DNA from: Acaryochloris marina MBIC11017
Lineage (GTDB): Bacteria; Cyanobacteriota; Cyanobacteriia; Thermosynechococcales; Thermosynechococcaceae
Reading direction: 5' to 3'
Length of the DNA: 32,000 nt
Assembly: GCF_000018105.1 (NCBI RefSeq)
Contig: NC_009925.1
Location: 4,170,001-4,202,000 of the forward strand
The notes below the pieces were generated by a model. The model made no database searches. It was not told the origin of the DNA and worked only from the letters and a program-made list of their open reading frames with translations. The first letter of the stretch is position 1. Each line of letters opens with the position of its first letter. Shown in pieces: positions 1,235 through 29,094 of this stretch. Both the position numbers and the translations under genes were made by a program.

Positions 1235-1236
1235 GG

Positions 1237-2628: not shown

Positions 2629-2806
2629 TCCATAAGACTTTACCCGCACTTCCTTCACTGTCGGATGAGTGGTTCTCGTAGAAAGCAGTTCTAAACATTC
2701 CGACTTCCTGGTACTTTGAGAAGAAGGCCTAAAGGCCACACCGTATCCTGGAACGTCAGACTCTCTTCTGGAATGTTCCATTGCTCCTTTCGACGCAACT
2801 GTATCC

Positions 2807-3973: not shown

Positions 3974-4026
3974 CGGCGTCTACCGCTCCTATGTCAAAAT
4001 AATTATCTGCAAATAGGTAACCCGCT

Positions 4027-6895: not shown

Positions 6896-7804
6896 ATGAG
6901 GCAGTTTTCGCCCTTGACCATTATTTCTTACATCATTGGCCCCATTCTGATTATCGTTAGTCATATTGGATCATTATTACTCTTCAATACGGGATTATCT
7001 TTTGGTGCCCTGGCATGGATCGTATTTTTATATCTGATCCGTATGTTAGCTACCACTGGTATTTATCATCGGCTCTTAACCCATAAAAGTTATCAAGCGC
7101 CAGCCCCTGTTCTATGGATTGGTTGTGTTGTCGCAGCGGCGGCAGGACAAATGGGGCCGAGTTGGTGGAAAGCACACCACCTTACCCACCATAAACATAC
7201 GGATCAACCGCAAGATCCTCATTCTCCTTATTCCCCAGTCCAGAAGGTTGGGGGGGTTTATTGGTCTCAAGGGGGGTGGCTTTTATCTTCTACGTTTTTG
7301 CCTGATCAGTTACCGAAAGATGTTGAAAGTGACGTAGTATTACGAGTCCTGGATCGTCTCCACTTTTTACCTGTTCTAGCCTTGGCCGCACTGTCCTATG
7401 GAATAGGAGGTATAGAATATTTGGGTGCATTTTTCCTCAGTACAACATTGCTATTTCATGGTGTTCAAACTGTGAATTCTCTCAGCCATATTGTGGGAGA
7501 ACAACCTTTCGCGACGAAGGATCATAGCCGGAATAATTGGCTAGTTGCCGTGTTGACTTTGGGAGAAGGCTGGCATAATTTACACCATGCATTTCAAACC
7601 TCTAGTCGACAGGGTATTACGATCAAAGGGGGTAAGGTTCGGTATTTGCCTGACCCCACCTTCCGCTTTATTAAAGGGCTGGAATCTTTGAAGTTAGCCT
7701 CTAAACTCAGAGTGCCAACGGAAACCACTTTGTTGGCTCGCGCCAAGCTTGTAGGCGAGCCTACAAGCTTGGCAGCCATCGTAGAGAGTCCAGCGCATTC
7801 CTAG
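6896..7804 (+). CDS. Membrane fatty-acid desaturase, Delta9 (acyl-CoA/acyl-lipid) type
   Basis: 302 aa. Three His boxes are present in the canonical order: HRLLTH, HHLTHHKH and GEGWHNLHHAF. The N-terminal half is hydrophobic. Confidence 0.8.
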   Translation: MRQFSPLTIISYIIGPILIIVSHIGSLLLFNTGLSFGALAWIVFLYLIRMLATTGIYHRLLTHKSYQAPAPVLWIGCVVAAAAGQMGPSWWKAHHLTHHKHTDQPQDPHSPYSPVQKVGGVYWSQGGWLLSSTFLPDQLPKDVESDVVLRVLDRLHFLPVLALAALSYGIGGIEYLGAFFLSTTLLFHGVQTVNSLSHIVGEQPFATKDHSRNNWLVAVLTLGEGWHNLHHAFQTSSRQGITIKGGKVRYLPDPTFRFIKGLESLKLASKLRVPTETTLLARAKLVGEPTSLAAIVESPAHS

Positions 7805-7997
7805 GGGATGTTAATAGGCGTACTGGTGCTGTACCCTTGTCGTTTCTGATTATTGATGACTACTATTGGGTATGGCAGGTTGCCTTGAAAAAGGTTGGAA
7901 ATACTGCTCCATAAGCATCGCTGACGTCAATGTCTAGACTTTTTAGGAATATTGAATGGATGAGAGCTATCCAGCTTTCTAGAAGAGTCCAAAAGCA

Positions 7998-8210
7998 ATG
8001 ACTCTGAACCGCTTTGATCGAGCATGGATTCAGTGTCGCTTAAAGTCACTAATGGCGGATGGCAAGCCCCTGGAGGATGCTATACGAATCGCCTTTGTGG
8101 AGGATGGCATTGGTATGATGCCACTTTGGCCAGCTGTTCAATCGGTTGCTCAAGTCAATGCACGAGAGGCGAAGCGAATTGTTATACGGGCTATTAGACA
8201 TAGGTCTTAA
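7998..8210 (+). CDS. Small hypothetical protein (70 aa)
   Basis: Support is an ORF only. The composition is plausibly helical and I recognised no motif. Confidence 0.3.
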   Translation: MTLNRFDRAWIQCRLKSLMADGKPLEDAIRIAFVEDGIGMMPLWPAVQSVAQVNAREAKRIVIRAIRHRS

Positions 8211-8259
8211 GGCTAAACAGTTGGGTTGGTGGTCAAGCAAAACTCATGCTACTAGGCAG

Positions 8260-8693
8260 ATGACGCTGTTCTTCATGTGTCTTTTAGTACTGTCTGGGTG
8301 CCGACCCAGCGTGGAATCTAGAGGTTCAACTGTTCCACGTAATGCAAGAGAGAAGGCTATTTTTGATTATTTCTCTGCATTGCGGGAGCAACGTTATGAG
8401 GACGCTTATCAACTCCGTACCTTGAACCTTAGCCCGTCTTCTCCTTCCCCCAAAGACTTCTTGTATTTCAAGAAACCTATCAAGAAAACCATGCGCCTTT
8501 GGCAACTCAAATTGCCGTTGGTGAGGAAGAACGGTGGTATGGAGATGGCCCCTGTGCATACATTTATACCGTTTATGCTGTTGAACCAGGACATACCACT
8601 TTAGTGAATGGTATGGTCAGTTTGCATTCAAAACCTGATCAATCTGAAGCGTGCCTTATTGGTTATAACTCTGCGTTTGGTTTTTCTCCTTAG
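8260..8693 (+). pseudogene. Small lipoprotein gene interrupted by a frameshift (or sequencing error)
   Basis: The ATG at 8260 gives MTLFFMCLLVLSGC, a signal peptide plus lipobox Cys. This frame becomes non-protein-like after ...FKKPIKK and stops at 8604. A second frame, open from 8433 to 8693, reads HAPLATQIAVGEEERWYGDGPCAYIYTVYAVEPGHTTLVNGMVSLHSKPDQSEACLIGYNSAFGFSP. The switch is most simply placed at the A4 run at 8485-8488. Confidence 0.5.
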
Positions 8694-8720
8694 GGACATC
8701 TCCTATAGCGATGGGGGCTG

Positions 8721-9036
8721 ATGAATCCTCCTGTTAAAGAAGAACTGATTACCCAACTGGCAAAGCGTTTGGCTATAGAAGTTCTGTCGATTGTGCATTA
8801 GTTTGAAGCAGATCATCCTTACGATCAGATGTATGCTTTTGCATTGATAGCTCCTGCTGAAGGGACATGTATTGGTGTTGCGATCGCAACTGAATAAACC
8901 TGAGCAACAGTCGCTCAATCCTATCTCCAGAAAGGCTATCAGGCATAACAGGCGATACGCTTGCCTGACTACGTTGAGTCTACGATGGTCCAAGTTGGTA
9001 TTACGAATATTTTCCTGAACCGTTCTCGTTGCTTGA
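8721..9036 (+). pseudogene. Decayed DUF4303-like gene with several in-frame stops
   Basis: The + frame from the ATG at 8721 reads MNPPVKEELITQLAKRLAIEVLSIVH*FEADHPYDQMYAFALIAPAEGTCIGVAIATE*T*ATVAQSYLQKGYQA*QAIRL. A shifted frame further on contains LRWS. The pattern (YAFAL..., ...TEE..., ...LRWS) resembles DUF4303 proteins as I remember them. The first stop is the TAG at 8799-8801. Confidence 0.45.
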
Positions 9037-9083
9037 GCAACATCAAAACACAAAAAATTAATTCTATCTACTCAGTTTGATGT

Positions 9084-9719
9084 ATGAATAAAGTGACAAA
9101 AGAACAACTTGAAATGCATATTGCTGAGTCAACAGTCCATGATGCTGGGCCATACTCTAATCTTGAAGTCCCAGTAGTGATGTCCTATCCTGAACCGGAA
9201 TTCATGGCGAAGTGGGTTCATCCGTTCTATCTGACAAGCACCATGACTCGGTTTACTGAGTTTCAACATTCTTATTCTGAAATACGAAGCCAGATCGATT
9301 CAGCTTTGATTAGCAAACTTCTCACATATTTTAATTGGCGTCCACGTAAGGTTGGCTCATACTTCGCAGCCATTGAAAATTCCAAGGAGCATTGCCAGCA
9401 TATCGGTAGATTACTCCTACGTTCTGATGTCCGTTATGCGGGTCAGGCCCATGCATTAGCACTGGCTCAATTCAATACAAACGATTCCATTTCATATTTG
9501 TGTAAATATCTAGACCACTATCTACAGCATCCAGAACTCCAATTCGATCAAGGTGCTGTATATGGCGCTGTAGTCTACTTAGATACCCAAAATGGAACGA
9601 AACTAGCGAAGAAATACACCGAGCAGTGGCACAAATTTGCAAAGGGCAGCTCAAACTGTGTTGATGGCATGGCCAAGCTGCTTGAATCTATTAGGGGTTT
9701 ATCCAGTGGTCCCGCATAA
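9084..9719 (+). CDS. Hypothetical protein (211 aa), no family recognised
   Basis: This is a clean ORF with an ATG start. It is AT-rich: a hand count of 9081-9140 gives 20/60 G+C. It has no TM segment or signal peptide. Confidence 0.65.
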   Translation: MNKVTKEQLEMHIAESTVHDAGPYSNLEVPVVMSYPEPEFMAKWVHPFYLTSTMTRFTEFQHSYSEIRSQIDSALISKLLTYFNWRPRKVGSYFAAIENSKEHCQHIGRLLLRSDVRYAGQAHALALAQFNTNDSISYLCKYLDHYLQHPELQFDQGAVYGAVVYLDTQNGTKLAKKYTEQWHKFAKGSSNCVDGMAKLLESIRGLSSGPA

Positions 9720-9825
9720 TGGGACAAACGAAAAAAGCAAGCTCCACACTCTGCTCAAGTGTTAGTTGTCCAACGCTTGACGGAACCTGACACCCCAAGG
9801 ATCAGAAAGCCGAATATTTTCTCAA

Positions 9826-10764
9826 CTACGATTGCCGTTCCCGACTGAGCAAAGCCACACTAAAGGTGACCAAAATAACGCCGAAAATTTGCAGAGGCTT
9901 GAGGGTCTCTTGAATGGCGAACCAGGCCAGAACAACCGTTAACGCTGGATTGGTAGCCCCGATAATGGATGCCGTGGTGGCCCCAATTAAACGAATGCCC
10001 ATATTGTTGAGCAGATGCCCACTAGATGTGGCAATCGCTGACAACAAGCCCCCAATCCATAATGGCCCCCACTCAATGGCCTCAGGCTGTGTCCAGAACA
10101 GCAAGCTTAAACAGGACAAGACCAGCGTAACCGCAAAGCTAATCCAGGTATAGGGAATAGGATGGACCTGCTCAAAGCTTTTTTGAGCGAGAACCGTATA
10201 GATGGCATAGGCAACCCCTGAACCAATTCCCAAGCCAACCCCCAACGCATTAGCCGTTAATCCAGTTTGAGGAACCGTAAGGGCACTGCCGACCAGGACT
10301 AATCCCATGACCGTCCAGCGAAATCGGGAGGGCGCAGTACCAAAGAAGTACCAGGAGAGAAGGGCTGTAAAAACGGGAAAGGTGAAAAATAGGGTTAGGG
10401 CAATTCCGGTTGGAATCAGCCCCACTGAGAAATAGAGCAGTGCCAGGTAGAGGTACATAAATACGCCACCCAACAGAGATCGCATTAGGTCAGGACGATT
10501 CTGCTTTTGAGCCAGCTTTCTTAAGTCCCACCACAACGAAGGGTAAAACAGCGGTGTCATGGCTGATACCAACGGCACCACCCACACCATCCGCATCGCC
10601 ATTAACAAAAAAGAGTTGGGGAGAGAAGGGGCAACGAACCCTCCCGTTTGCAGCAGGCCAGCAACGGTGTATTCGTTAAAGAGAATGCGGACGATAACGT
10701 TTTGAAAACAAAAAAAGACGGCGCCCAGTAAGACGATCAGAAAACCAATCATAGTCTGGGGCAA
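9826..10764 (-). CDS. DMT-superfamily (EamA-type) permease
   Basis: The protein has about 10 hydrophobic helices in two similar halves. The ORF begins at a TTG at 10764, but the ATG at 10752 (MIGFLIVLLG) is the more likely start. Confidence 0.85.
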   Translation of the reverse strand: MPQTMIGFLIVLLGAVFFCFQNVIVRILFNEYTVAGLLQTGGFVAPSLPNSFLLMAMRMVWVVPLVSAMTPLFYPSLWWDLRKLAQKQNRPDLMRSLLGGVFMYLYLALLYFSVGLIPTGIALTLFFTFPVFTALLSWYFFGTAPSRFRWTVMGLVLVGSALTVPQTGLTANALGVGLGIGSGVAYAIYTVLAQKSFEQVHPIPYTWISFAVTLVLSCLSLLFWTQPEAIEWGPLWIGGLLSAIATSSGHLLNNMGIRLIGATTASIIGATNPALTVVLAWFAIQETLKPLQIFGVILVTFSVALLSRERQS

Positions 10765-11066
10765 CTCATAAATCAGCCTTTACAAAGGTCGGCTTGATTT
10801 TAGGTAAGGCACCTTTTATCTTTTGCAAACAATCCATGGGGTGGAAAAATAGGTAGTCAAAATTTATTCTTGAGAGTATTTTTACAGAAAATTTTTCTGA
10901 ATATTAGTTGTATCGCGTTATAGGTACAACACATCAAAAATGAACAAAATAAATCTCTTAAAATCTTTACGGGAAGCGGATCGCAATAAATTTATTCTCG
11001 TAAGATGAAAGCCTAAAACAATGGTGTCAACCTAACGAGTCATTTTTAACCACTGAATATCTCTAG

Positions 11067-18471: not shown

Positions 18472-19341
18472 TTAGGTTGCTTCGGTTGGAGATTTCTCCA
18501 AAATGGCCAGTGCGATTCCTCCCAGAATGGCACTGGACGCCACCACTAGGCGTAGGGTTAGATTTTCACCGAGAAAAAGTATTCCTCCTGCAGCAGCAAT
18601 GACGGGAACACTGAGTTGGACCGTCGCTGCAGACGTTGCCGTCAAATCTTTTAAGGCCGTGTACCAAATGGTATATCCCAGACCTGACGTGACGGCACCC
18701 GCTGCGACTGCATATAGACAGCCTGCCAAGGTTAACGACGTTTCGGAAATCATCGATAGACTCAGTCCCACAGTAAATGGGACTGCTCTTAAAAAGTTGC
18801 CAGCCGTCATTTCCATAGGGTTGCTAGCCGTTTTGCCGCGTAAAGAATAAATCCCCCAGGCAATGCCTGCAGCGATCATCAGGGCAGAACTTTGGAGCGG
18901 GGGAGCCGAAAGACCCGGTAATAGAAATCCTACTAGACCCAACAGCGCCAAAATGAAACCAGCAATTTGCTGCTTGCTTAAACGTTCTCCAGTCCAAAAT
19001 CCATATCCGATCATGGTGATCTGTACTGCCCCAAAAAGCAGTAACGCCCCCGTACCAGCAGCTAGCTTGATATAAGCAAACGAAAAGCCTGCTGCATAGA
19101 TAAAAAGTGCTAATGCAGAAGTCCAACTGCCTTCAACTTTAAGGCTTCTACCCTTTATTTGTGTGATCAATCCTAGGATAATCGCACCGGAGATGAGCCG
19201 AAGTGATGTAAAGGTTGCTGCATCAATGGGCGTTTCTCTAAGCGCTAACCGACACAGGATAGAATTTCCGGCAAAGGCAAGCATCGCTAGTAAAGTCAGG
19301 GTAAAAACCCGTGGATGAGACATCCCATCAGTCCTCAGCAA
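18472..19341 (-). CDS. DMT-superfamily (EamA-type) permease
   Basis: It has ten hydrophobic segments and EamA-like halves. The ORF opens with a TTG at 19341, and the ATG at 19323 (MSHPRVFTLTLL) is the likelier start. Confidence 0.85.
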   Translation of the reverse strand: MLRTDGMSHPRVFTLTLLAMLAFAGNSILCRLALRETPIDAATFTSLRLISGAIILGLITQIKGRSLKVEGSWTSALALFIYAAGFSFAYIKLAAGTGALLLFGAVQITMIGYGFWTGERLSKQQIAGFILALLGLVGFLLPGLSAPPLQSSALMIAAGIAWGIYSLRGKTASNPMEMTAGNFLRAVPFTVGLSLSMISETSLTLAGCLYAVAAGAVTSGLGYTIWYTALKDLTATSAATVQLSVPVIAAAGGILFLGENLTLRLVVASSAILGGIALAILEKSPTEAT

Positions 19342-19483
19342 CCAATTTTTGAAAACGCTACGTCATTCAATCTTATAGAAGCTTCTTCCTGGGGTTGATG
19401 GGTAACGAATTGAGATACTGCTGCGATAGATGCTAATCCTGGAAGCAAGTAGTGATGAGGAAGCGCTTGTCAAACTTTGTTAT

Positions 19484-20152
19484 TTACTGAATGACTCGAA
19501 AAGTGAGGTTAATTCTTGGATCAACTGTCCGTCTAGTTTTGGGCACATGATGTTGCCAGAAATGCTGTGTTGGACCTTGCATCAGCAGCAAGCTACCGTT
19601 AGTCAGATTGAGTTCTACCTTGGGTATTGATTTATTCCCTTTATGCCTTAGTAAAAAGCGACGGCAGCCTCCCAAACTTACTGAACCAATGACCGGATTA
19701 GGTCCCAATTCAGGCTCATCATCGCTATGCCAGCCCATACTGTCTTGACCATGACGGTAGAAATTCAACAACACACTATTGAATTCCACCTCAGCAACCG
19801 TCTCAATGGCTACCTTGATCTGGCGCAACGTCGGTGTCCAGGGTAATGGCTCCATGGAGATACCAGAATAACGATAGGTTTTACCTGGATCGCCATACCA
19901 GGCTGTTAACCTAGGCAAAAGGTGATGACGGCCAAAGATGGTTGCTGAGTCTTGTCGCCAAGCAATTTCTGCTTCAAGGGTCGCAAACAACTGCTCACAG
20001 TCTGCAGCGTTAAATAGGCAAGGGTAAAACAACACCTCTGCATCAGGCATTTGTAGCGGTTGGACCTGATGATCTGAGGTGAATAGAGAAAGCTGCTGGG
20101 TTGGGGGATGGGGGTTGTGCATTTCGTTCAGCACCCTAATCTCTGCATTCAT
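19484..20152 (-). CDS. alkB: AlkB-type Fe(II)/2-oxoglutarate DNA/RNA dioxygenase
   Basis: It carries GWHSDDE (HxD iron ligands), WQHHVPK and RINLTFR. I trimmed the listed ORF (to 20254) to the ATG at 20152 because the longer form overlaps the upstream lipoprotein gene, which ends at 20178. Confidence 0.85.
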   Translation of the reverse strand: MNAEIRVLNEMHNPHPPTQQLSLFTSDHQVQPLQMPDAEVLFYPCLFNAADCEQLFATLEAEIAWRQDSATIFGRHHLLPRLTAWYGDPGKTYRYSGISMEPLPWTPTLRQIKVAIETVAEVEFNSVLLNFYRHGQDSMGWHSDDEPELGPNPVIGSVSLGGCRRFLLRHKGNKSIPKVELNLTNGSLLLMQGPTQHFWQHHVPKTRRTVDPRINLTFRVIQ

Positions 20153-20177
20153 GATCTTAGGGTGCCTGAACTCGCGT

Positions 20178-20903
20178 TTACGATTTGGGAACGACGATCT
20201 TAAATTCGTACCCTTCGAATTTATTAATGCTGTTGGTGAATTGAGCCGTGGCAAAGTTAGGCCCTACCCAAGTCACAATTTTCTTTTCAATTTTCTCAGG
20301 CTCGACCTCACCATACTTTTCAGCAAAAGCTAAAGCAACTTTTTGATAGGGATGGTCTTTTTTGATAGACGGGTCAAACAGTAGTGAAACACTGTATAAA
20401 GTGCGCTTTCCTTCAGGATCTTTTTTGTCTTTGAGAAAGCTGAATTTATACTTATCAACACCTGGGACACCCTTGGCTGGGACTTCGCTAAACCCAAACT
20501 TAGAAATCTTTTCTGCTCCAGGTAGGATCTTGCCCACTTCTTCAGGACTCATCCCTCGCTTGAAATCATATTCTGAGAGGGTTTTGGGGAGCCATCCATC
20601 ATCTTCAGTGCCAATGATAGCCGCCAGGTCAACTTTCCCTGAACTTGCGGAAGAGGCTAGGGTTTCGGTACCAGAATTGGAGTTGTCGGCAGTTTCATCC
20701 GTCGTAGAGCTGGGATCTGCAACTGAGCGGTCTAGGGAGTCTGTGGACGCGTCTGAGGCAGATGATTCAGCAGGGGTAGATGCTGGTGATTCAGTGTCTG
20801 AAGAGGTTTCTGTACTGCTGCAGCTCATTAATAACCCCAGACTAAGGGGAAGTAAGGCTAAAGCAATCGATTTTCGTTTAGGAGTCTGAGTTAAGCGATG
20901 CAT
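20178..20903 (-). CDS. Lipoprotein of unknown function
   Basis: It has a signal peptide and lipobox (ALALLPLSLGLLMSC). A ~70-aa Ser/Thr/Asp/Ala-rich linker follows, then a globular C-terminal domain. Confidence 0.7.
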   Translation of the reverse strand: MHRLTQTPKRKSIALALLPLSLGLLMSCSSTETSSDTESPASTPAESSASDASTDSLDRSVADPSSTTDETADNSNSGTETLASSASSGKVDLAAIIGTEDDGWLPKTLSEYDFKRGMSPEEVGKILPGAEKISKFGFSEVPAKGVPGVDKYKFSFLKDKKDPEGKRTLYSVSLLFDPSIKKDHPYQKVALAFAEKYGEVEPEKIEKKIVTWVGPNFATAQFTNSINKFEGYEFKIVVPKS

Positions 20904-21051
20904 GATGTACCGTTCAATCCTACGGTTCTAATTCTGGCAATCTTGAGTCAATTTGCCAAATCAAGACGAGTAGTTTACCGATGGCTAAATAGGCTGGTAT
21001 TCTCATACCTAATAGGACTGCCCTTTGCGAATTCTAGAAGGTAGACAACAT

Positions 21052-21330
21052 ATGGATAGCACTGCTATTTCCGTGGTTGAGTGGGTGATTAATCTGGTGC
21101 GAGCTTATGCGATCGCAGGTTTGATCTTCGCGCTTCTGTTCGTTACCTTTTTGGTCAAGCGGGTTGATTCAGGTGCTCAAGGTTGGGCCATTGGCTTCCG
21201 AATTCTGATTATTCCGGGGGTGGTTGCATTTTGGCCAATGTTCGCGGTGCGCCTGTTGCGCGGCAAAGGCCATCCCACCGAAAAGAACGCCCATCGCCTA
21301 GCTGCCAAGCAAAGTGCAGGAGCCTCATAA
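21052..21330 (+). CDS. Small two-TM membrane protein (92 aa)
   Basis: The ATG at 21052 is preceded by GAAGGTAG. There are two hydrophobic helices (AIAGLIFALLFVTFLV and FRILIIPGVVAFWPMFAV). Its stop overlaps the next start (TAATG). Confidence 0.6.
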   Translation: MDSTAISVVEWVINLVRAYAIAGLIFALLFVTFLVKRVDSGAQGWAIGFRILIIPGVVAFWPMFAVRLLRGKGHPTEKNAHRLAAKQSAGAS

Positions 21331-21848
21331 TGGTCATTTCTCGCCGGCAGGTTCACCTCTATTCCTTTGTGATTCTGGCGATTGTGCTGCCCCTCTGTTT
21401 TGTTGCAGGTTTAGTCTGGCGACCCACCTTTGCTCCAGTGGACGCCTCAGCGGATGCCTTATTTCAACGAGCAGGATTTGCCCCCTACTCCAGTTGGGAG
21501 AATCAGGAGTCGAAACGCAAACCCACGCTTCTCCAGCAAGAGAACATTCAACTCCAGATTGAAACCTTGTTTGCTCAAGCTAGCAACGATGTCTTTCTCA
21601 AGATTCAGCCCCAGTCAGATCTGCAGCTACCGGATGTGTTGGTGTATTGGCAACCCGGAACGCCACCGGAACAGTTGAGTGAGACTTCGATCTTATTAGG
21701 GGCGTTGTCGGGTGTATCGAATCGCCAATTCCTGATTCCAGAAGCCATGCAGGGGCAACCAGGGCACCTACTTCTATTCAGTCAGGCCACTAAAGAAATC
21801 ATCTCTGCGTTTCCCCTAGATCCTGATTTGACCCAACCTGAACGCTAA
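21330..21848 (+). CDS. Membrane-anchored hypothetical protein (172 aa)
   Basis: The ATG at 21330 overlaps the upstream stop. An N-terminal TM anchor (LYSFVILAIVLPLCFVAGLVW) is followed by a soluble domain. The longer listed ORF (from 21183) overlaps the previous gene in another frame. Confidence 0.6.
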   Translation: MVISRRQVHLYSFVILAIVLPLCFVAGLVWRPTFAPVDASADALFQRAGFAPYSSWENQESKRKPTLLQQENIQLQIETLFAQASNDVFLKIQPQSDLQLPDVLVYWQPGTPPEQLSETSILLGALSGVSNRQFLIPEAMQGQPGHLLLFSQATKEIISAFPLDPDLTQPER

Positions 21849-21871
21849 TCCATTCTGAGAGGAAGTTATCC

Positions 21872-22933
21872 GTGGGCGTTGCATATAAAGCGGTTCAGTG
21901 GAATCGGCAGAAGTTTGTTTACGACATTATTTTGCTGACCACGGTCGTTTTCTATCTCTTTTTCTTTGAGGGGATTAGCCTTCACTTTAGTAGTGATCTA
22001 GATATTAAAGGGATTTGGATTCGGGCCTTTGGCTCTGCTGCCTTTATCCTCCTCCATGTCATTCTGTCCATTGGCCCCCTCAGCCGCCTTAGCCCCAAGT
22101 TTTTGCCCCTCCTCTACAATCGGCGGCATATGGGCGTCACCATGTTTATTCTGGCTCTACTCCATGCTCGAGATGCTTTGGCCTGGTATCACGACTTTGG
22201 CAACCTAGAACCTATTGTCAGCCTGTTTGTCAGCAATACTCACTATGCTGATTTTATTCGTTTCCCCTTTGAAGCCCTGGGGGGTGTGGCCCTTGTTATC
22301 TTGTTTTTGATGGCGGCGACGAGCCATGATTTTTGGCTCACTAACCTGACCGCGCCTGTGTGGAAAGCCCTGCATATGGGAGTCTACTTAGCCTATGGCT
22401 TATTAGTGGGGCATGTGGTGTTAGGGGCCTTAGAAACCAATACCCATCCCTTGCTCACCTTGGCCGTTGGCGTTGGCTTTGTGTGGATTGTGGGGATTCA
22501 CCTGATCACTGCTCTGCGAGAAGCACAAAAAGATGGCGCACCGCTGTTTGGACCCCCGGCCCAGCCCCAAGTGGATGCGGATGGCTTTATCCATGTGGGC
22601 AGTGTGCAAGATATTCCTGAGAATCGCGCCAAAATTGCGGTCGTTGCTGGGGAGCGGGTGGCCATCTTTAAATATGAAGGCAAAATCTCGGCTATTTCCA
22701 ATGTGTGCCAGCATCAAAATGGCCCGTTAGGAGAAGGTAAGATTGTCGATGGCTGTATCACATGTCCTTGGCATGGATATCAATATTTGCCAGAGAGCGG
22801 GATTTCTCCACCACCCTTTACGGAAAAAATCCCTACGTTTAATGTCAAACTCCAGGGCGATCAGATTCTAGTCAGCGCTAAGCCTAATCTTCCTGGAACC
22901 CCTGTTGTCCCTGCTGTTATTGGCCAAGTGTAG
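21872..22933 (+). CDS. Fusion protein: ferric-reductase-like 6-TM di-heme domain + C-terminal Rieske [2Fe-2S] domain
   Basis: 353 aa with a GTG start. There are six hydrophobic helices. His pairs lie within helices 3 and 5 (HMGVTMFILALLH and HMGVYLAYGLLVGH, 12-13 residues apart), as in FRD/NOX/MsrQ-type cytochromes b. The C-terminus carries a canonical Rieske motif, CQH-x16-CPWH. Confidence 0.85.
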   Translation: MGVAYKAVQWNRQKFVYDIILLTTVVFYLFFFEGISLHFSSDLDIKGIWIRAFGSAAFILLHVILSIGPLSRLSPKFLPLLYNRRHMGVTMFILALLHARDALAWYHDFGNLEPIVSLFVSNTHYADFIRFPFEALGGVALVILFLMAATSHDFWLTNLTAPVWKALHMGVYLAYGLLVGHVVLGALETNTHPLLTLAVGVGFVWIVGIHLITALREAQKDGAPLFGPPAQPQVDADGFIHVGSVQDIPENRAKIAVVAGERVAIFKYEGKISAISNVCQHQNGPLGEGKIVDGCITCPWHGYQYLPESGISPPPFTEKIPTFNVKLQGDQILVSAKPNLPGTPVVPAVIGQV

Positions 22934-22935
22934 CG

Positions 22936-23700
22936 ATGAGTCGCCTCGATTCCCACGATGAATTTTTTATTGGCTATCTAGGGGTGCCGCCCCAATTAAA
23001 ACGATTTTTGCTGGGGTTGATTCCCGTCCTAGTGTTAGGTGCATTAGCCTTTGCCTTTATTCTGCCCCCCTTACATTTTGATCACTTCAATTTGGGTAAA
23101 CGGACCAAAGTCCCTGAATTTGAAGGACTGCTGGTCGGGGAACCCTCTCCCCACCTCTTGGTGCCCAGAACGGGAGGCGTGGGTACTGTGAGTGATTTTT
23201 CCCTCTATCTCCTATCAGGAACAGGCAAAACCTCCCCTAAGCCCAAGGTGCTGGAGCATGTGGATAAATGGGTGAAACTGAAAGGCACCCCTTTCCACCG
23301 CAATCACTTAACAGTGATTGCCACCAAATCAGCGGAACCAATCGACCGTCCGACCTCGAGACCGACCCAACCTGCGGAAGGTAGCTCTCTTGGCGAGTTT
23401 TCCCTAAAAGGAGAAATTGTAGATGGCAAATGCTACCCCGGTGTGATGAAACCTGGACGGACAAAAACCCATCGCTCTTGTGCTATCCGCTGCATCGCCG
23501 GGGGAGTACCTCCCGTGTTTGTGGTCCATAATTCGGCGGGGGATAAACTCTATTTTTTGCTGTCGGATCTGGATGGAAAAGCAGTTAATGACAAGGTTTT
23601 AGACAGGGTGGCCGATCCTGTACAAATTACGGGAGAAGTGGTTCAATATGCGGATGCTTTTGTTCTGAAAGCGGATCCAGCCACCTATCAACTGTTGTAG
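22936..23700 (+). CDS. Membrane-anchored protein of unknown function with a C-x17-C-x3-C motif
   Basis: 254 aa, starting 2 nt after the upstream stop. It has one N-terminal TM helix (FLLGLIPVLVLGALAFAFILPP). The soluble domain contains GKCYPGVMKPGRTKTHRSCAIRCIAGGVPPVF. Confidence 0.7.
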   Translation: MSRLDSHDEFFIGYLGVPPQLKRFLLGLIPVLVLGALAFAFILPPLHFDHFNLGKRTKVPEFEGLLVGEPSPHLLVPRTGGVGTVSDFSLYLLSGTGKTSPKPKVLEHVDKWVKLKGTPFHRNHLTVIATKSAEPIDRPTSRPTQPAEGSSLGEFSLKGEIVDGKCYPGVMKPGRTKTHRSCAIRCIAGGVPPVFVVHNSAGDKLYFLLSDLDGKAVNDKVLDRVADPVQITGEVVQYADAFVLKADPATYQLL

Positions 23701-24690
23701 ATGCCCTCACTGTCCTTCTCGGCGATTAATCCCAAACTTGCGTTAGTGATCTCCAGAGCCTTGGCGGCATTGCGGCCTTCTCTGATTGCTTTTTTGGTTG
23801 CCAATGCCATGTTGCTGAGTGGCGGCACCCAAACGCCCATCTCCTTTTGTAATGTCTTATTTGTGGGCAATTTATGCGCAGCCTTAGCTGTGGGAACCTG
23901 GTTTGGCTGGCGCTCTTTGATCCAAGATTGGCGGAGCCTGGATCGACGCATTCAGGTGGGGCTGTTTTTGAACGGCGGTTTAGCTGCCCTCCTTTCTTCT
24001 TTGATTTTTGTGGGATTGGCCTATACGTCCGTGACGAATGCGGTTTTGTTGGGACGTCTTGGCCCTGTCATCTATGCATTGGTTGGCACCCTGATTTTAG
24101 GCCGCAAAATCAAGCGATTTGAATGGATTGGGTTTTCCTTGATTATTGCGGGGGTATTGGCGATTGTGCTGAAGACCAGCAACTTTGAGATTAATCAGGG
24201 CGATCTATTCATTCTGCTGTCGGCCTTGGTCTATGCGGCCAGCTCCACCTTGGGGAAGCTGATGCTGTCTCAGCAGACGAATCTGCGCATTGTGGTGTTT
24301 AGCCGTAATCTTATTTCGGCCATCATCTTCTTTGTTATTGCTAATTTGGTGTTTGGCCCAGAGCATTTTATGGATGTGCTGGCAGGGCAACTGTGGATAG
24401 TGATGGTGGTCTATGCCCTAATCATTATTGTCTTGGCCCAATTTCTTTGGTATTCAGCCCTGGAGCAATTGAATTCGCAAACGGTAGGTAAATGGACGGC
24501 GTTGTCTCCAGTATTTGGGGTGACCTATGCCTTTGTGCTGAATGGTGAGCGGCCTTCCCTGGCTCAAGTTTTAGCGTTTCTGGTGATTATGGCAGGGATT
24601 TGTATAACGAGCTTTAATCGGCAGTCTTCTCGACCGATGGAAACTAACGAGATGGCCGATGGGGCTGAAAGCTGTATGTCTACGTCTTAG
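23701..24690 (+). CDS. DMT-superfamily (EamA-type) permease
   Basis: 329 aa. The ATG immediately follows the upstream TAG. It is a ten-helix hydrophobic protein with two EamA-like halves. Confidence 0.85.
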   Translation: MPSLSFSAINPKLALVISRALAALRPSLIAFLVANAMLLSGGTQTPISFCNVLFVGNLCAALAVGTWFGWRSLIQDWRSLDRRIQVGLFLNGGLAALLSSLIFVGLAYTSVTNAVLLGRLGPVIYALVGTLILGRKIKRFEWIGFSLIIAGVLAIVLKTSNFEINQGDLFILLSALVYAASSTLGKLMLSQQTNLRIVVFSRNLISAIIFFVIANLVFGPEHFMDVLAGQLWIVMVVYALIIIVLAQFLWYSALEQLNSQTVGKWTALSPVFGVTYAFVLNGERPSLAQVLAFLVIMAGICITSFNRQSSRPMETNEMADGAESCMSTS

Positions 24691-24726
24691 CCTAAGGCTA
24701 TCCCAACCGAGAGATCGCCCCAGGGC

Positions 24727-26112
24727 TTAGGGCTGCTGCAGTCGAGCGATTTGCATAGGGTAGCTATCTTTGATCTTCTTCAACGGAAATTGCACAAAGG
24801 GGGCTGTACCTTGCACCTGCCATTCAAACTGGCGAAGCAGATGGCTGCCGAAAATTTTGGCGATGGTCATGGCTAACTGCGCACCTAAACAAGCATGAAC
24901 CCCACCACCAAAGGGAATGTAAGCATATTTATCTCGGGCGTTGGCATTCTCCAGAAATCGATTGGGCTGGAAGGCATCTGGTTGAGGGAAATGCTCGGGC
25001 AGGATATGGGCAATGCGGGGCTCTGCAATTAAAGTCCATCCTTTCTCATAGAGCACACCGTCTAACACCACAGATTGAGTCAGGCGGCGGTTCGCGGTGG
25101 AGGAGGGAGGAAGAGTACGGAGGGTTTCTTGAAGGGTGGCGTCTAGAAAAGAGGTCGTTTTAAGTTGCTCGCTTGTAAGGGGCTGTGCTGATTGCGCTTG
25201 TATCGTGGCTTGTTCCCCACGGAGGTGGGCAAAATGCTCAGGATGACGACCTAGTTGGTATATCCAGGATGAGACCAATCCACTGATTTCATAGTGGGAA
25301 GCCCACAACTGCAATAAACATTGATTCTCGATCAAGGTGTTGCTAAAGACGCTCTCTGGATCTGTTTGTTGACTCACCAACATCATGGACAAGAAGTCGG
25401 CAGTGGGATCTAGATTAATCTCCGATTGGCGTCGATGGATAACAGCCTGCATAAATTTGATCAGGCGGGCACGGGCTTGTAGACCGCGGCCAAAGGTCGT
25501 GAAGGAGGAACGCCAGGGCAAGAGGCCGTAAAAACCATCAAAAAAGGTTTTGTAGACTTGTTTGAGTCCCGCTTTGGATGGAATGGGTAGCCCCTGAAAG
25601 CACCCATCGTCTAACTCAACGCCCAGCAAGAGGGGAACCAAGACATCAAAGCAGATCTGCTCTACGGCTGGGAATAAGGCAATTTCACCTTGGGCAGGCC
25701 ATGTTTGAAGACGTTGAATAATCACGTCATTGATTTTGGGTATATAGCCCTGGATGGCTTGTCCAGCTAAGCCCGCCCGGAGCGCACTCTTCCGTTGTCG
25801 ATGCAGGTCGGGGCGCTGAAACAGACTATATTCCCCAAACATGGTCATGGTGGTTTGGGGCAGGCCAATTTCGGTATAGCGGAGGTCACCATTGAGGGCC
25901 ATTTGCACTGCCCGTGATGAGCCGACAAAAATAGTGGTGCCTCCAAACACGCTCGTCCTAAAAATAGGACCGTGCTCTTTCAGGTTGTGGCGACAAAACT
26001 GATCGGGGTTAGTAATGTAAGCTAAGGTATCCGTCCACTTCGGTTGACGAGGAGGAAGCTGGGTTCCAGTTGGGGGAGCTTGCTCGGTCTCTAGCACCAA
26101 CACGTCACTCAT
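24727..26112 (-). CDS. Cytochrome P450 (cyanobacterial CYP120-like)
   Basis: 461 aa. It has the heme-thiolate loop FGGGVHACLGAQLA, the K-helix ETLR, and a PERF-like PNRF. Confidence 0.9.
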   Translation of the reverse strand: MSDVLVLETEQAPPTGTQLPPRQPKWTDTLAYITNPDQFCRHNLKEHGPIFRTSVFGGTTIFVGSSRAVQMALNGDLRYTEIGLPQTTMTMFGEYSLFQRPDLHRQRKSALRAGLAGQAIQGYIPKINDVIIQRLQTWPAQGEIALFPAVEQICFDVLVPLLLGVELDDGCFQGLPIPSKAGLKQVYKTFFDGFYGLLPWRSSFTTFGRGLQARARLIKFMQAVIHRRQSEINLDPTADFLSMMLVSQQTDPESVFSNTLIENQCLLQLWASHYEISGLVSSWIYQLGRHPEHFAHLRGEQATIQAQSAQPLTSEQLKTTSFLDATLQETLRTLPPSSTANRRLTQSVVLDGVLYEKGWTLIAEPRIAHILPEHFPQPDAFQPNRFLENANARDKYAYIPFGGGVHACLGAQLAMTIAKIFGSHLLRQFEWQVQGTAPFVQFPLKKIKDSYPMQIARLQQP

Positions 26113-26339
26113 TTGTCACATCCTCAGACATCATCACTAATCCACCTATTTATTGTGACGGTTTATTTGACGGTAGGAGACAGCCGTGACAATTAAGGTC
26201 CAGTCTTCGATTCAGAGGGTGAGGTTAGGGAAGCAGTTGAAGTATGCCGATCATTACGGTGTAATACTGTGGATATTAACCATACTGGACTGATCAACCT
26301 CAATGCATAACATTAGTCGTTTCCTGTCAATGACTGCCA

Positions 26340-26852
26340 GTGGGTACTAACGCTGTTTACTTAGCGATTGACGATTCCGATTTAGATGCCCTTTGGAAAC
26401 TTGAAGGCAGGCCGTTTCGCGATCGATTTATGGAGATCGAAGAAGAAGGCTGCTTGGAGACTCTCAACATAGGAAAGATTTGGGATGCCCTTCACTGTAC
26501 CTTGACAGGAGTGTCTGCCAGAACTCCCATTGATGGCAATAAACTAAGTGAGGCAATTGTTGGTGTGTATCCAAAGGTTTTCGATGATGAAGACTATTCG
26601 ATATATGTTTCCGCAATTGATAACGGAGAACTCGAAGACATCGTGATTGCACTCAAAACCTTCGATAGCCCGAAGTTAGCCTTGGCACTTGATCTAACGA
26701 ATCTGAAAAAGCAAAAGGTCTATCCATACGGAATCTGGCTTGATGAGGTGGAGGGCTATGTGCATGAAATGCACATAGCCCTCCAATCTATATGTGATTT
26801 TTTCCTTACAGCGAAGAAGAGTGGCAAACATATTCTTGCAACAGTGTTATAA
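26340..26852 (+). CDS. DUF1877 (YfbM-like) family protein
   Basis: 170 aa with a GTG start. The pattern LNIGKIWDALHCTLTG followed by ...DEDYSIYVSA resembles DUF1877 proteins as I remember them. Confidence 0.6.
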   Translation: MGTNAVYLAIDDSDLDALWKLEGRPFRDRFMEIEEEGCLETLNIGKIWDALHCTLTGVSARTPIDGNKLSEAIVGVYPKVFDDEDYSIYVSAIDNGELEDIVIALKTFDSPKLALALDLTNLKKQKVYPYGIWLDEVEGYVHEMHIALQSICDFFLTAKKSGKHILATVL

Positions 26853-27554: not shown

Positions 27555-28649
27555 GTGGAATTTTTGACCAATTTTATGACGCTCTTCCTGTCGAAGTTGC
27601 AGTCGCCAACCCTAGGCTTCCTGATCGGTGGTATGGTCGTTGCCGCCGTCCATAGCCGCCTACAAATCCCCGATGCGATCTACAAGTTCATCGTCTTTAT
27701 GCTGCTGATCAAAGTCGGTCTGAGCGGTGGGATTGCGATTCGCAATGCCAATTTAGCGGAAATGCTATTGCCTGCAGTGTTCGCCATGATAGTAGGGATC
27801 TTGATCGTGTTTATCGGGCGCTATACCTTAGCGAAGATGCCAAACGTCAAAACCGTTGATGCCATTGCCACCGCAGGTTTGTTCGGTGCCGTTAGTGGTT
27901 CTACCCTTGCCGCCGCCCTGACGTTACTGGAAACAGAAGGTATCACCTACGAACCCTGGGCCGCCGCCCTCTATCCCTTTATGGATATCCCAGCCTTGGT
28001 GACGGCGATCGTCTTGGCGAGTGTTTATCTCAGTAAGCAGCGTGATTTCGCAGATGAACCCCTGAGCAAGCAGGAGTATCTCGGCACTCCAGGCGGTACC
28101 GCCGTCGAGTATCGGCGTAAGCAACGCAGTACTGCCCCCAAGCGGGTTAAAGTATGGCCCATTATCAAGGACAGCCTTCAAGGCTCTGCCCTATCAGCCC
28201 TGCTGCTGGGCCTCGCTTTAGGTATACTTACACGGCCAGAAAGTGTTTATGAGAGTTTCTTTAATCCCCTCTTTCGCGGCCTGCTTTCGATCCTAATGTT
28301 GGTTATGGGGATGGAGGCAACGGCCAGAATCAGCGAGTTGCGTAAGGTGGGCCAGTGGTATGCCCTATATGCCTTTGTGGGGCCGCTTGTTCATGGGTTG
28401 ATTGCTTTTGGACTTGGTTGGATTGCCCATATCATCACAGGATTTAGCCCCGGCGGCTGTGTGATTCTAGCCGTTATCGCGTCTTCCAGTTCAGATATCT
28501 CAGGGCCGCCCACGTTACGGGCGGGTATTCCGTCAGCGAATCCCTCCGCTTATATCGGCTCGTCCACTGCCGTCGGCACACCGGTTGCACTGGCTTTGGG
28601 AATCCCCCTCTACATCGGACTTGCCCAAGCGCTGATGGGGGGGAGCTGA
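27555..28649 (+). CDS. sbtA: Sodium-dependent bicarbonate transporter SbtA
   Basis: 364 aa. It is near-collinear with Synechocystis SbtA as I remember it (MEFLTNFMTLFLSKLQSPTLGFLIGGMVVAA, GLFGAVSGST, YPFMDIPALVTAIV). The GTG start has a GGAGG SD. Confidence 0.93.
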   Translation: MEFLTNFMTLFLSKLQSPTLGFLIGGMVVAAVHSRLQIPDAIYKFIVFMLLIKVGLSGGIAIRNANLAEMLLPAVFAMIVGILIVFIGRYTLAKMPNVKTVDAIATAGLFGAVSGSTLAAALTLLETEGITYEPWAAALYPFMDIPALVTAIVLASVYLSKQRDFADEPLSKQEYLGTPGGTAVEYRRKQRSTAPKRVKVWPIIKDSLQGSALSALLLGLALGILTRPESVYESFFNPLFRGLLSILMLVMGMEATARISELRKVGQWYALYAFVGPLVHGLIAFGLGWIAHIITGFSPGGCVILAVIASSSSDISGPPTLRAGIPSANPSAYIGSSTAVGTPVALALGIPLYIGLAQALMGGS

Positions 28650-28677
28650 TGTCAGACAGGATCGACTCAGCGACTAA

Positions 28678-29094
<417 letters not shown>

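Follow-up and report, generated by a model that had tools for sequence, protein, structure and literature searches.

A conserved four-gene bacterial cassette with a ferric-reductase–Rieske fusion, predicted to move electrons across the membrane

Among the closest known systems to the one reported here is MsrPQ (YedYZ in E. coli), in which the heme-b ferric-reductase-domain (FRD) protein MsrQ feeds the periplasmic molybdoenzyme MsrP; a proposed donor of MsrQ is the flavin reductase Fre (PMC5676040). The combination of an FRD with a Rieske domain is not new in itself, since it was already catalogued in 2013, when Rieske was listed among the electron-transfer domains fused to bacterial FRDs (Zhang et al.; PMC3591440). 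In the literature searched, no paper was found that describes the cassette presented below, which agrees with the statement in the initial annotation that no characterized system of such composition was known.

The window is a stretch of 32,000 nucleotides from Acaryochloris marina MBIC11017. At positions 21052-24690, it carries five co-directional genes on the + strand, here termed g1 to g5 (Table 1), and the ORF list, the sequence and a hydropathy scan bore out the first description of the genes, of how they adjoin and of five membrane-associated products. The GTG start of g3 corresponds to the same first residue in its homologues. A consensus scan for promoters and terminators yielded no signal exceeding the shuffled background, and therefore a single transcript, which we infer, rests on gene spacing and synteny. 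The palindrome GGTATTCTCATACC upstream of g1 is a candidate lineage-specific operator or promoter element: the window has a single copy and 100 shuffles have none, and the element lies inside a block conserved among Acaryochloris-type loci. It is exact in two of these (L006 and L007), appears as the variant GCTATTCTCATATC in a third (L008), and was not found in the other 163 loci examined.

Table 1. Coordinates of the genes, domains and motifs described in the text, numbered from the first letter of the window.
Feature	Coordinates	Strand	Description
14-bp palindrome (candidate element)	20996..21009	+	43 nt upstream of g1
g1	21052..21330	+	ATG start; GAAGG Shine-Dalgarno-like motif upstream; 92 aa
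g2	21330..21848	+	junction -1 (TAATG), ATG overlapping the TAA stop of g1 by one A; 172 aa
g3	21872..22933	+	GTG start, 23 nt after g2; 353 aa
g3 membrane domain	21920..22516	+	~residues 17-215; TM scan, conservation
g3 Rieske domain	22586..22879	+	~residues 239-336; Pfam, conservation
g4	22936..23700	+	2-nt gap from g3; 254 aa
g4 signature motif	23410..23511	+	residues 159-192; family alignment
g5	23701..24690	+	0-nt gap from g4; 329 aa

The first four genes occur in the same order and on the same strand in 76 of the 78 genome loci with enough upstream DNA to be informative, which is far beyond chance. The cassette-bearing loci span at least 12 phyla, including Cyanobacteria, Verrucomicrobiota, Acidobacteriota, Planctomycetota and Acidimicrobiia, and the ordered cassette is also found in about 25 metagenome loci. 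Counted per gene among all 85 genome loci, g1 is present in 77, g2 in 78 and g3 in 83, with g1 directly upstream of g2 in 77. In one locus (L038), g4 is present and g1-g3 are not nearby. In three loci (L051, L063 and L076; two Acidimicrobiia and one Nitrospirota), g3 and g4 form a single polypeptide of 569-607 aa, and further fusions of 563-631 aa were identified among the cluster representatives. The gene-neighbourhood test suggested with the initial annotation thus links g1-g4 strongly across phyla, but not the five-gene module first envisaged, as only 16 of 85 genome loci have an orthologue of the DMT permease g5 after g4. We regard g1-g4 as a probable membrane electron-transfer cassette of conserved order, with g5 outside this core. 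That the five genes are packed together but unrelated is extremely improbable; the promoter and terminator scan gave no signal either way and the DMT is separable from the cassette, but the conserved four-gene order and the natural fusions both speak against it.

Several families recur near the cassette: a signal-peptide DUF1223 protein with a CxxC motif (thioredoxin-like), secreted YHS-domain (seleno)proteins, DoxX, DinB_2 and ECF sigma factors, along with methionine sulfoxide reductases, as lipoprotein MsrA/B in Verrucomicrobia and as MsrA in Synechococcus WH7803. These neighbours appear to share an envelope-redox theme; since they vary by lineage, and since many cyanobacteria carry the cassette alone, they point only weakly to a substrate. 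The product of g5, a DMT/EamA permease with two EamA repeats (Pfam), has neighbours of another kind. In metagenome loci, its orthologues almost invariably have as neighbours ATP-grasp, GNAT and cysteine-dioxygenase (CDO)-like genes, a set that occurs together with the DMT with or without the cassette and was not found in this window. Because g5 orthologues are tied more closely to this separable set, the coupling of electron transfer to DMT transport, proposed at the outset, is plausible for certain lineages without being a hallmark of the system. Our findings show that g5 is accessory, and suggest that it belongs to a separate metabolite module that often adjoins the cassette: it would be the DMT carrier of a module comprising an ATP-grasp ligase, a GNAT N-acetyltransferase and a cysteine-dioxygenase-like cupin, probably transporting their amino-acid-derived product across the membrane, and in this genome the carrier alone would remain beside the cassette.

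Within the core, g3 combines two recognizable domains, Ferric_reduct (residues 54-178, 43.5 bits) and Rieske (residues 240-320, 56 bits), both above the Pfam cut-off. The best FRD-specific NCBIfam matches, to MsrQ (E 2e-8; 34 bits against a cut-off of 130) and to the FRD part of MamZ, are weak. The hydropathy scan identified five transmembrane (TM) segments plus one weakly hydrophobic helix bearing a histidine, and hence six in all. Four histidines, H86 and H98 in TM3 and H168 and H181 in TM5, are invariant in sets of 80 and 21 sequences, as is H152 in a cytoplasmic S-H-D-F-W loop. By its family scores and by comparison with E. coli MsrQ, the membrane domain is MsrQ/YedZ-like, and by analogy with its family it probably binds heme b. 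Two b hemes, as originally proposed, are plausible because the four histidines are invariant, although one heme has been proposed for the MsrQ/YedZ-like group (PMC3591440). In the Rieske domain, the ligands C279-x-H281 and C298-x-x-H301 are invariant among g3 homologues, and the domain lacks the additional cysteines that form a disulfide in the Rieske proteins of bc1/b6f. It is of the ferredoxin type, with NDO ferredoxin, BphF and CarAc as the best matches to solved structures (E down to 5e-12).

The partner encoded by g4 has one TM helix in the hydropathy scan and an N-tail with a D-E-F-Y-x-G-Y motif. This tail is predicted to lie in the cytoplasm, and the two tandem OB folds of the AlphaFold2 model (pLDDT 87) outside the membrane; Foldseek against the PDB returned only weak OB-fold matches, none of them significant, and there was no sequence match in Pfam, NCBIfam or the PDB. 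The family comprises 2517 clusters at 50% identity and is marked by the motif G-E-I-V-D-x-K-C-x-x-G-x-M-x-P-G-x-x-K-x-H-R-x-C-A-x-R-C-I-x-G-G-x-P, located in a helical stretch inserted into the second OB fold (model helices 166-170 and 177-188). All 234 family members compared carry C166, M171, H179, C182 and C186, and D163, K165 and K98 are ~99% conserved. In the g3-g4 fusions, the N-tail and TM helix of g4 follow directly on the Rieske C-terminus; given a six-TM, N-in FRD, this layout puts the OB domains on the side of the membrane opposite the Rieske domain. The Cys3-His-Met site is accordingly predicted to be extracellular. The topology given in the initial annotation, with the Rieske domain in the cytoplasm, the heme-ligand histidines in the membrane and the Cys-motif protein g4 outside, is thus backed by natural fusions. 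No twin-arginine motif was found in g4, which makes a pre-assembled Fe-S centre unlikely.

The remaining core subunits are small. The first, g1, is a two-TM hairpin protein by the hydropathy scan; a 24-sequence alignment shows that its loop (R-x-D-P ... G-F-R) is conserved, as is its basic C-terminal tail (P-x-E-R-N-A-H-R). The second, g2, starts with a basic stretch that is invariant (M-I-x-x-L-R-x-x-H), has one TM segment and carries an ectodomain with an Ig-like beta-sandwich fold, whose AlphaFold2 model (pLDDT 75) derives from a shallow alignment. Neither matched a Pfam or NCBIfam family. Both may be structural or docking subunits, with their conserved basic, His-containing tails on the cytoplasmic side.

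These features bear on whether the cassette could serve to acquire or detoxify metals as a ferric or cupric reductase, the metal ion being bound by g4 (through a Cys/His/Met site on an OB fold, like that of CusF-type Cu(I) binders) and by g2 (through its beta-sandwich) and reduced by the outer heme of g3. Cys, His and Met, invariant in g4, are typical Cu(I) ligands, and YHS-domain genes lie near several loci, but the latter match a (seleno)protein redox subfamily. The weak g2 fold matches in Foldseek include the copper-resistance protein CrdA, but none is significant (E > 0.01) and the g2 beta-sandwich alignment contains no conserved metal-ligand residues. The source annotation of a Synechococcus g3 orthologue reads "putative ferric reductase," and g3 belongs to a superfamily in which eukaryotic FRE and STEAP proteins reduce Fe(III) and Cu(II) (PMC3591440). 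Against this, Fe/Cu transporters (Feo, FTR1, ZIP, CopA, TonB-dependent) are absent from the identified neighbour families recurring in at least 7 loci, and we consider a metalloreductase unlikely.

The three outward-facing invariant cysteines of g4, together with a Rieske domain whose closest solved relatives are dioxygenase ferredoxins, could also suggest the opposite direction of flow, in which extracytoplasmic thiols (DsbB/VKOR-like) or another outside donor would be oxidized and electrons would pass inward via the hemes and the Rieske centre to a cytoplasmic acceptor or oxygenase. Rieske ferredoxins normally supply oxygenases, and the cysteine-dioxygenase-like, DinB_2 and Rieske-GltS-like FMN protein genes recur nearby. 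However, a Rieske centre of low potential is ill suited to accept electrons from thiols, the cysteine-dioxygenase-like cupin has, to our knowledge, no need for an external electron donor, and the core encodes no cytoplasmic acceptor. Electrons move outward in all characterized FRD proteins (PMC3591440, PMC5676040), and we judge inward flow very unlikely.

Outward flow could instead end on O2, the outer heme producing extracellular superoxide while g1, g2 and g4 act as regulatory or stabilizing subunits, as p22phox does for NOX. The cassette-bearing taxa appear mostly aerobic or oxygenic, and we know of no agreed enzyme source for the superoxide produced by marine bacteria and Synechococcus. 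The FRD fold is common to g3 and NOX enzymes, and O2 or cytochrome c can serve bacterial FRD proteins as electron acceptors in vitro (PMC5676040). Such an oxidase is nonetheless highly improbable: the g3 domain is MsrQ/YedZ-like rather than NOX-like and has no FAD/NADPH domain, the absolute conservation of the g4 site would be left unexplained, and the neighbours indicate repair rather than ROS production.

We therefore favour, at somewhat better than even confidence, a four-subunit membrane complex of g1-g4 that passes electrons from the cytoplasm to g4 and probably acts in envelope chemistry involving thiols or oxidative damage. What the sequences show directly is the order and synteny of the genes, their domains, the invariant residues and the g3-g4 fusions; from these we infer that cofactors bind, which way electrons flow, that g3 hands them to g4, and what the substrate may be. 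The low-potential Rieske [2Fe-2S] centre at the cytoplasmic C-terminus of g3 would accept electrons from a soluble cytoplasmic reductase, which would be encoded elsewhere, as the core cassette contains no such gene. Electrons would then reach one or more b hemes, ligated by the invariant histidines in the six-helix, MsrQ-like domain, and pass from the outer heme to the Cys3-His-Met site of g4, which may either work as a redox-active thiol/disulfide or bind a Cu or Fe ion. For transfer from a one-electron heme to a two-electron disulfide, we know of no good precedent. Finally, g4 would reduce an envelope substrate, the likeliest being periplasmic proteins with oxidized thiols, selenols or sulfoxides, or else a thiol metabolite that has been exported; periplasmic MsrP, which receives electrons from MsrQ, offers a precedent (PMC5676040).

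Compared with known systems, the cassette has only a functional analogy, the supply of reducing equivalents to envelope thiol proteins, with DsbD/CcdA/ScsB and with the cysteine-export systems EamA (YdeD) and CydDC. Thioredoxin-like DUF1223 and Msr genes lie near the cassette, but there is no homology, and the cysteine relays of DsbD and CcdA work without metals or heme; the DMT g5 shares a superfamily with the cysteine exporter EamA (a weak NCBIfam match, 33 bits against a cut-off of 472). Like bc1/b6f, g3 pairs a Rieske centre with a His-ligated b-type cytochrome in the membrane, but its cytochrome fold is FRD rather than cytochrome b, its Rieske domain is cytoplasmic and of low-potential type, without Tat signal or disulfide, and there is no sign of a quinol site. 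The Rieske ferredoxins of dioxygenases (BphF, NDO ferredoxin, CarAc) have identical ligands and likewise lack the bc1-type disulfide; the g3 domain, in contrast, is tethered to a membrane cytochrome instead of being a soluble shuttle, and the cassette has no oxygenase or ferredoxin reductase gene.

The NOX/FRE/STEAP proteins share with g3 a transmembrane heme-b FRD core, invariant His pairs in TM3 and TM5, and the fusion of the membrane domain to a cytoplasmic module through which electrons enter. That module is FAD/NADPH in NOX and FRE and an F420-type NADPH domain in STEAP, whereas in g3 it is a Rieske domain, so that direct electron uptake from NAD(P)H is not possible; the TM3 His spacing is 12 in g3 against 13-14 in NOX-type domains, and the three conserved partner subunits have no counterpart there. 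MsrPQ differs in that the cassette lacks a molybdopterin MsrP-like gene and has instead, in g4, a membrane-anchored tandem-OB-fold partner with a Cys3-His-Met site, carries two additional small subunits (g1 and g2), and has its Rieske domain fused at the cytoplasmic end of g3, while MsrQ depends on a separate donor. The two systems resemble each other in the six-helix FRD of MsrQ/YedZ type, in the dedicated extracytoplasmic electron acceptor encoded adjacent to it, and in the methionine-sulfoxide-reductase genes that recur near the cassette.

The five packed genes (g1 to g5) encode membrane-associated products with 2, 1, 6, 1 and approximately 9-10 transmembrane (TM) segments, respectively, as judged by hydropathy. 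The gene list, the junctions and the membrane association proposed in the initial annotation were confirmed by analyses of open reading frames (ORFs), Pfam/NCBIfam searches and hydropathy. The best homologues belong to Acaryochloris, with 83-97% identity for g2 and approximately 90% for g4. Neither gene flanking g1-g5 shares their direction: the upstream one, lipoprotein-like, is on the opposite strand, and the downstream one is a convergent cytochrome P450 gene. Because a promoter/terminator consensus scan of window positions 20700-24900 returned counts equal to the shuffled background, we infer the g1-g5 operon from spacing and synteny.

Coordinates of the five genes and of other features in the window and in the fetched loci (L numbers: loci of other genomes or metagenomes)
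Feature	Sequence	Coordinates	Strand	Remark
EamA/DMT gene	Window	9826-10764	-	
EamA/DMT gene	Window	18472-19341	-	
AlkB-like 2OG-Fe(II) oxygenase ORF and Ser/Thr/Asp-rich lipoprotein-like gene	Window	19484-20903	-	Overlap of ~75 nt at the end of the lipoprotein-like gene
Palindrome GGTATTCTCATACC	Window	20996-21009		14 bp; 43 nt upstream of g1
g1	Window	21052-21330	+	
g2	Window	21330-21848	+	ATG shares its A with the g1 TAA stop (TAATG overlap)
g3	Window	21872-22933	+	GTG start; 23 nt after g2
g4	Window	22936-23700	+	2 nt after g3
g5 (EamA/DMT gene)	Window	23701-24690	+	0 nt after g4
Cytochrome P450 gene	Window	24727-26112	-	Stop codon 36 nt from the g5 stop
SbtA-type Na+/bicarbonate transporter gene, then small PII-like (SbtB-like) gene	Window	27555-29094		
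g4 followed by OlsB/OlsA/DinB_2 genes	L038 (Cytophagia MAG)	1-4120		
Cupin-DMT-ATP-grasp-GNAT module	L037 (SynWH7803_1051-1053)	7760-10960		Also L089, L091, L096 and others
OlsB-like, OlsA-like, DinB_2, TANGO2 and DedA(VTT)-ATP-grasp-like run	L057	7875-13420		Also L058, L073, L082, L044, L070
Methionine sulfoxide reductase gene(s)	L039	9212-9910		
Methionine sulfoxide reductase gene(s)	L046	10319-11458		
Methionine sulfoxide reductase gene(s)	L068	3660-4598		
Methionine sulfoxide reductase gene(s)	L037	11639-12361		
Rieske-GltS-like gene	L001	12041-13074		Also L079, L075, L111, L118
Rieske-GltS-like gene	L024	1103-2716		

The remainder of the window is ordinary cyanobacterial chromosome, and includes the SbtA-type and SbtB-like genes, the usual carbon-concentrating pair of cyanobacteria. 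The Ser/Thr/Asp-rich lipoprotein-like gene is divergent from g1, and the AlkB-like ORF beside it probably starts downstream of its listed TTG. The top NCBIfam match of the P450 gene is the RiPP P450 ApyO, far under its cut-off, and this gene is not among the neighbour families recurring in at least 7 other loci. The palindrome upstream of g1 occurs once in the window and in 0 of 100 shuffles. The block around it is conserved among loci of the Acaryochloris type, where the palindrome itself is exact in L006 and L007 and a variant in L008; every other fetched locus lacks it. It was therefore rejected as a general regulatory motif and may represent a lineage-specific operator.

Beyond Acaryochloris marina, the conserved unit comprises g1-g4, hereafter the cassette. 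The contexts of distant g3 and g4 homologues contain the same four genes, encoding approximately 90, 165, 355 and 255 aa, and context look-ups recovered them without the DMT permease in Leptolyngbya PCC 7376, Acaryochloris thomasi and unrelated MAGs. A g4 profile searched against one genome per species matched at least 560 stretches, of which 80 loci were fetched; the g4 family itself forms 2517 clusters at 50% identity (E <= 1e-3). The fetched loci cover cyanobacteria (including Synechococcus WH7803, Moorena producens and Xenococcus), Verrucomicrobiota, Acidobacteriota, Planctomycetota, Gemmatimonadota, Calditrichia, KSB1, Kiritimatiellae, Cytophagia/Rhodothermia, Acidimicrobiia, Nitrospirota, Leptonemataceae and Chromatiaceae. 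The g2 homologue search matched Acaryochloris only, and distant relatives of g1 and g2 were found by iterated HMMs on the fetched loci. Scored in this way on ORFs, g1 was present in 77 of 85 loci, g2 in 78, g3 in 83 and g4 in all 85.

Among the 78 loci whose upstream DNA was sufficient, 73 retain the order g1<g2<g3<g4 on one strand, and three more have it with g3 and g4 fused. Two loci depart from this order: L012, where g1 was not detected, and L038, where g4 stands without g1-g3; the place of the latter three is taken by a permease and an aldo-keto-reductase/RidA fusion. In L041, a MAG related to that of L038, g3 and g4 lie 1.3 kb apart; together, these two arrangements indicate that the cassette can be split. 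The possibility that the genes form no functional unit is contradicted by these data for g1-g4, and we consider it extremely improbable. Thus, the neighbourhood conservation anticipated for all five genes held for g1-g4, which are ordered across phyla, and failed for g5, which follows g4 in only 16 of 85 loci.

These 16 loci belong to Acaryochloris, Moorena, Symploca, Caldora, marine Synechococcus, one Chromatiaceae and one MAG labelled Spirochaetaceae; in many cyanobacteria, the cassette stands alone. The g5 product belongs to the DMT/EamA family (two EamA repeats, PF00892, 89.6 bits over two stretches; 9 hydrophobic segments), and no NCBIfam equivalog reaches its cut-off. In a metagenome scan, approximately 25 close g5 orthologues (at least 370 bits) had g4 immediately upstream and six others with enough upstream DNA did not, while none of the distant DMTs (150-260 bits) adjoined the cassette. 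At nearly all loci, close g5 orthologues are flanked by a GshB/RimK-like ATP-grasp ligase, a cysteine-dioxygenase-like cupin and a GNAT most similar to arsinothricin/phosphinothricin N-acetyltransferases (ArsN1/PAT-like). Picocyanobacteria have all seven genes overlapping end to end, as in SynWH7803_1047-1053. This cupin-DMT-ATP-grasp-GNAT module, found both joined to the cassette and alone, resembles a route to an N-acetylated amino-acid or peptide metabolite for export, possibly thiol-derived. It is joined to the cassette often, not always. Given these flanks and the cassette-free loci, g5 is best read as the carrier of the neighbouring metabolite module. No ATP-grasp ligase, GNAT or cysteine-dioxygenase-like cupin was found in the window, and of its three EamA/DMT genes within 15 kb, only g5 adjoins the cassette.

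The g3 product combines a ferric reductase domain (FRD; Ferric_reduct PF01794, 43.5 bits against a cut-off of 28, residues 54-178) with a C-terminal Rieske domain (PF00355, 56 bits against a cut-off of 20.3). A TM scan detected five helices plus a polar, histidine-bearing TM3, giving the six helices of an FRD. Across 80 sequences and a second alignment of 21 sequences, the histidines H86/H98 (TM3), H168/H181 (TM5) and H152 (in an S-H-D-F-W loop) are all invariant; the TM3 spacing is 12, compared with the canonical 13-14. Nearest to the membrane domain are MsrQ and the FRD portion of MamZ, with scores far under both NCBIfam cut-offs, and a PDB-sequence profile search with g3 returned Rieske domains only and no FRD structure. 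We take g3 to align residue for residue with E. coli MsrQ at the R-R-(x12)-H stretch of TM3 and the H-(x12)-H stretch of TM5; the invariant H86 of g3, beside the arginines, would be an addition relative to MsrQ. YedZ-like short forms usually have three histidines and probably one heme (Zhang et al., PMC3591440). The four histidines of g3 would be compatible with two hemes. C279, H281, C298 and H301, the Rieske ligands, are likewise invariant in both sequence sets and lie within the boxes C-Q-H-Q-N-G and C-P-W-H-G-Y; bc1-type disulfide cysteines are absent, and the closest solved relatives are NDO ferredoxin, BphF and CarAc. These sequence features place the domain in the low-potential ferredoxin type.

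The other three cassette products are orphans. The window proteins g1, g2 and g4 have no Pfam-A or NCBIfam match at E <= 0.01, and family members tested singly (24, 20 and 39, respectively) gave no consistent match at E <= 0.1. A weak g4 match to ApyH, with E 0.0036 and 16.5 bits (cut-off 400), was taken as chance. Likewise, g4 matches no PDB sequence at E <= 1. Its structural model (pLDDT 87) comprises a TM helix and two OB-like barrels with a helical insert in the second, for which Foldseek returned generic OB folds only (best E 3.7e-3). Residues C166, M171, H179, C182 and C186 of the insert are invariant in 234 of 234 sequences. The g2 model (pLDDT 75), built from a shallow alignment of 11 sequences, shows an Ig-like sandwich in which no ligand residues are conserved; its Foldseek matches were generic beta-sandwiches only (best E 1.1e-2).

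In one Nitrospirota locus (L051) and two Acidimicrobiia loci (L063 and L076), g3 and g4 are joined in one ORF of 569-607 aa, in which the end of the Rieske domain continues directly as the D-E-F-Y-x-G-Y tail and TM helix of g4. Representatives of g4 clusters with 563-631 aa show the same fused arrangement. These fusions are Rosetta-stone evidence for a predicted physical complex, and they also fix its predicted relative topology. The g3 FRD has a basic N-terminus (K6, R12, K14), its first TM begins after 16 residues, and no twin-arginine motif precedes TM6. With six helices and this basic N-terminus, the Rieske domain is predicted to be cytoplasmic, as in other FRD proteins; the g4 tail would therefore be cytoplasmic and the g4 OB domains extracytoplasmic. 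Before its signal-anchor helix, g4 has one commonly conserved basic position, R23 (R in 137 and K in 24 of 234 sequences); no twin-arginine motif was found in g4, nor any RR in the fused forms, which does not fit Tat export. The beta-sandwich of g2 is probably outside too, since an invariant basic start, M-I-x-x-L-R-x-x-H, precedes its TM helix, and g1 is a hairpin with a basic, histidine-containing C-terminal tail. As the positive-inside count for g1 and g2 is not decisive, the cassette topology rests on the g3-g4 fusions and FRD precedent.

Building on the observed synteny, fusions, domain identities and invariant residues, we consider it on balance probable that the cassette moves electrons from a cytoplasmic reductant to an envelope substrate through g3 and then g4. 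In this scheme, whose cofactors, electron direction, heme-to-g4 step and substrate we infer, electrons would pass from the reductant to the g3 Rieske domain, to one or two b hemes, to the Cys3-His-Met site of g4 and finally to the envelope substrate, with g1 and g2 as putative structural subunits. A ferric or cupric reductase, in which g4 would be the metal-binding subunit, appears unlikely; the recurring neighbour families that were identified include no metal transporter. If the substrate were Fe(III) or Cu(II), the cassette would instead become a candidate for the enzyme behind reductive metal uptake in cyanobacteria.

In Verrucomicrobiota, Planctomycetota, Acidobacteriota, Gemmatimonadota and Cytophagia, genes downstream of or facing the cassette encode OlsB-like and OlsA-like acyltransferases, DinB_2, TANGO2, DoxX, ECF sigma factors, a DedA/VTT protein with a C-terminal ATP-grasp-like region, signal-peptide DUF1223 (CxxC) proteins, secreted YHS-domain (seleno)proteins and lipoprotein MsrA/B. 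The common theme appears to be envelope thiol/oxidative-stress chemistry plus envelope lipid modification, heterogeneous across lineages. Several non-cyanobacterial loci carry an OlsB-to-DedA run after the cassette, often with DUF1223, YHS and DoxX genes; a literature search with these gene names found no match for this envelope cluster, and no DinB, OlsB, TANGO2 or DUF1223 partner was found in the window. Methionine sulfoxide reductase genes adjoin the cassette in 7 loci, and the Verrucomicrobia copies, which have lipoprotein-type signal sequences, are probably extracytoplasmic. A highly conserved 537-aa protein (60-80% identity across phyla), with a Rieske domain at its N-terminus and an FMN domain resembling that of glutamate synthase (Rieske-GltS-like), is encoded near the cassette in approximately 11 of 165 loci and is a possible cytoplasmic electron donor. 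An inward flow of electrons from envelope thiols seems very improbable.

More tentatively, g1-g4 could represent a widespread, previously undescribed class of conduit, in which a Rieske-fed, MsrQ-like cytochrome would reduce a new type of tandem-OB Cys3-His-Met protein. If so, it would provide reducing power for envelope thiol, selenol or sulfoxide repair, or for an exported thiol metabolite, independently of DsbD/CcdA and molybdoenzymes. To our knowledge, few routes bring reducing power to the bacterial envelope (DsbD/CcdA thiol relays, MsrQ-MsrP and cysteine/glutathione export). The cassette would add one more, with an unusual Rieske entry point and a terminal protein family without a Pfam/NCBIfam model. 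Its breadth, its three sizeable orphan families, which gain a testable role, and the strictly conserved, predicted extracytoplasmic g4 site make it noteworthy. Its hosts include ecologically important lineages (marine Synechococcus, Moorena, Acaryochloris, and soil Verrucomicrobiota and Acidobacteriota), and Synechococcus WH7803 and Leptolyngbya PCC 7376 are tractable genetic hosts.

High-potential bc1/b6f Rieske proteins carry the boxes CTHLGC and CPCHGS, with disulfide cysteines, are Tat substrates and pair with a cytochrome b fold. Unlike them, g3 has different boxes, no cytochrome b Pfam match and a Rieske domain that follows TM6 on the predicted cytoplasmic side; a bc1-like reading was rejected on fold, Rieske type and topology. 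The FRD+Rieske architecture was catalogued in 2013 with no function given (PMC3591440), the sole relevant match in literature searches on domain combinations, neighbour combinations and SynWH7803 locus tags; these searches found no description of the cassette, g1, g2, g4 or the WH7803 genes. Unlike STEAP, g3 has no Pfam match to an N-terminal F420-type NADPH oxidoreductase domain. NOX-like superoxide production, which would share the FRD, is very improbable in our view: unlike the NOX/FRE long forms, g3 ends in a Rieske domain and has no FAD_binding_8 or NAD_binding_6 match. Unlike MsrPQ, g3 scores 34 bits against the cut-off of 130 for the MsrQ equivalog model (NF003831), and no Oxidored_molyb match indicative of MsrP was found in the ten proteins scanned at window positions 18472-26852 or in the scanned recurrent neighbour clusters. 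Like MsrQ-MsrP and NOX/FRE/STEAP, the cassette would nonetheless be, by the proposed model, an FRD-based conduit that carries electrons outward.
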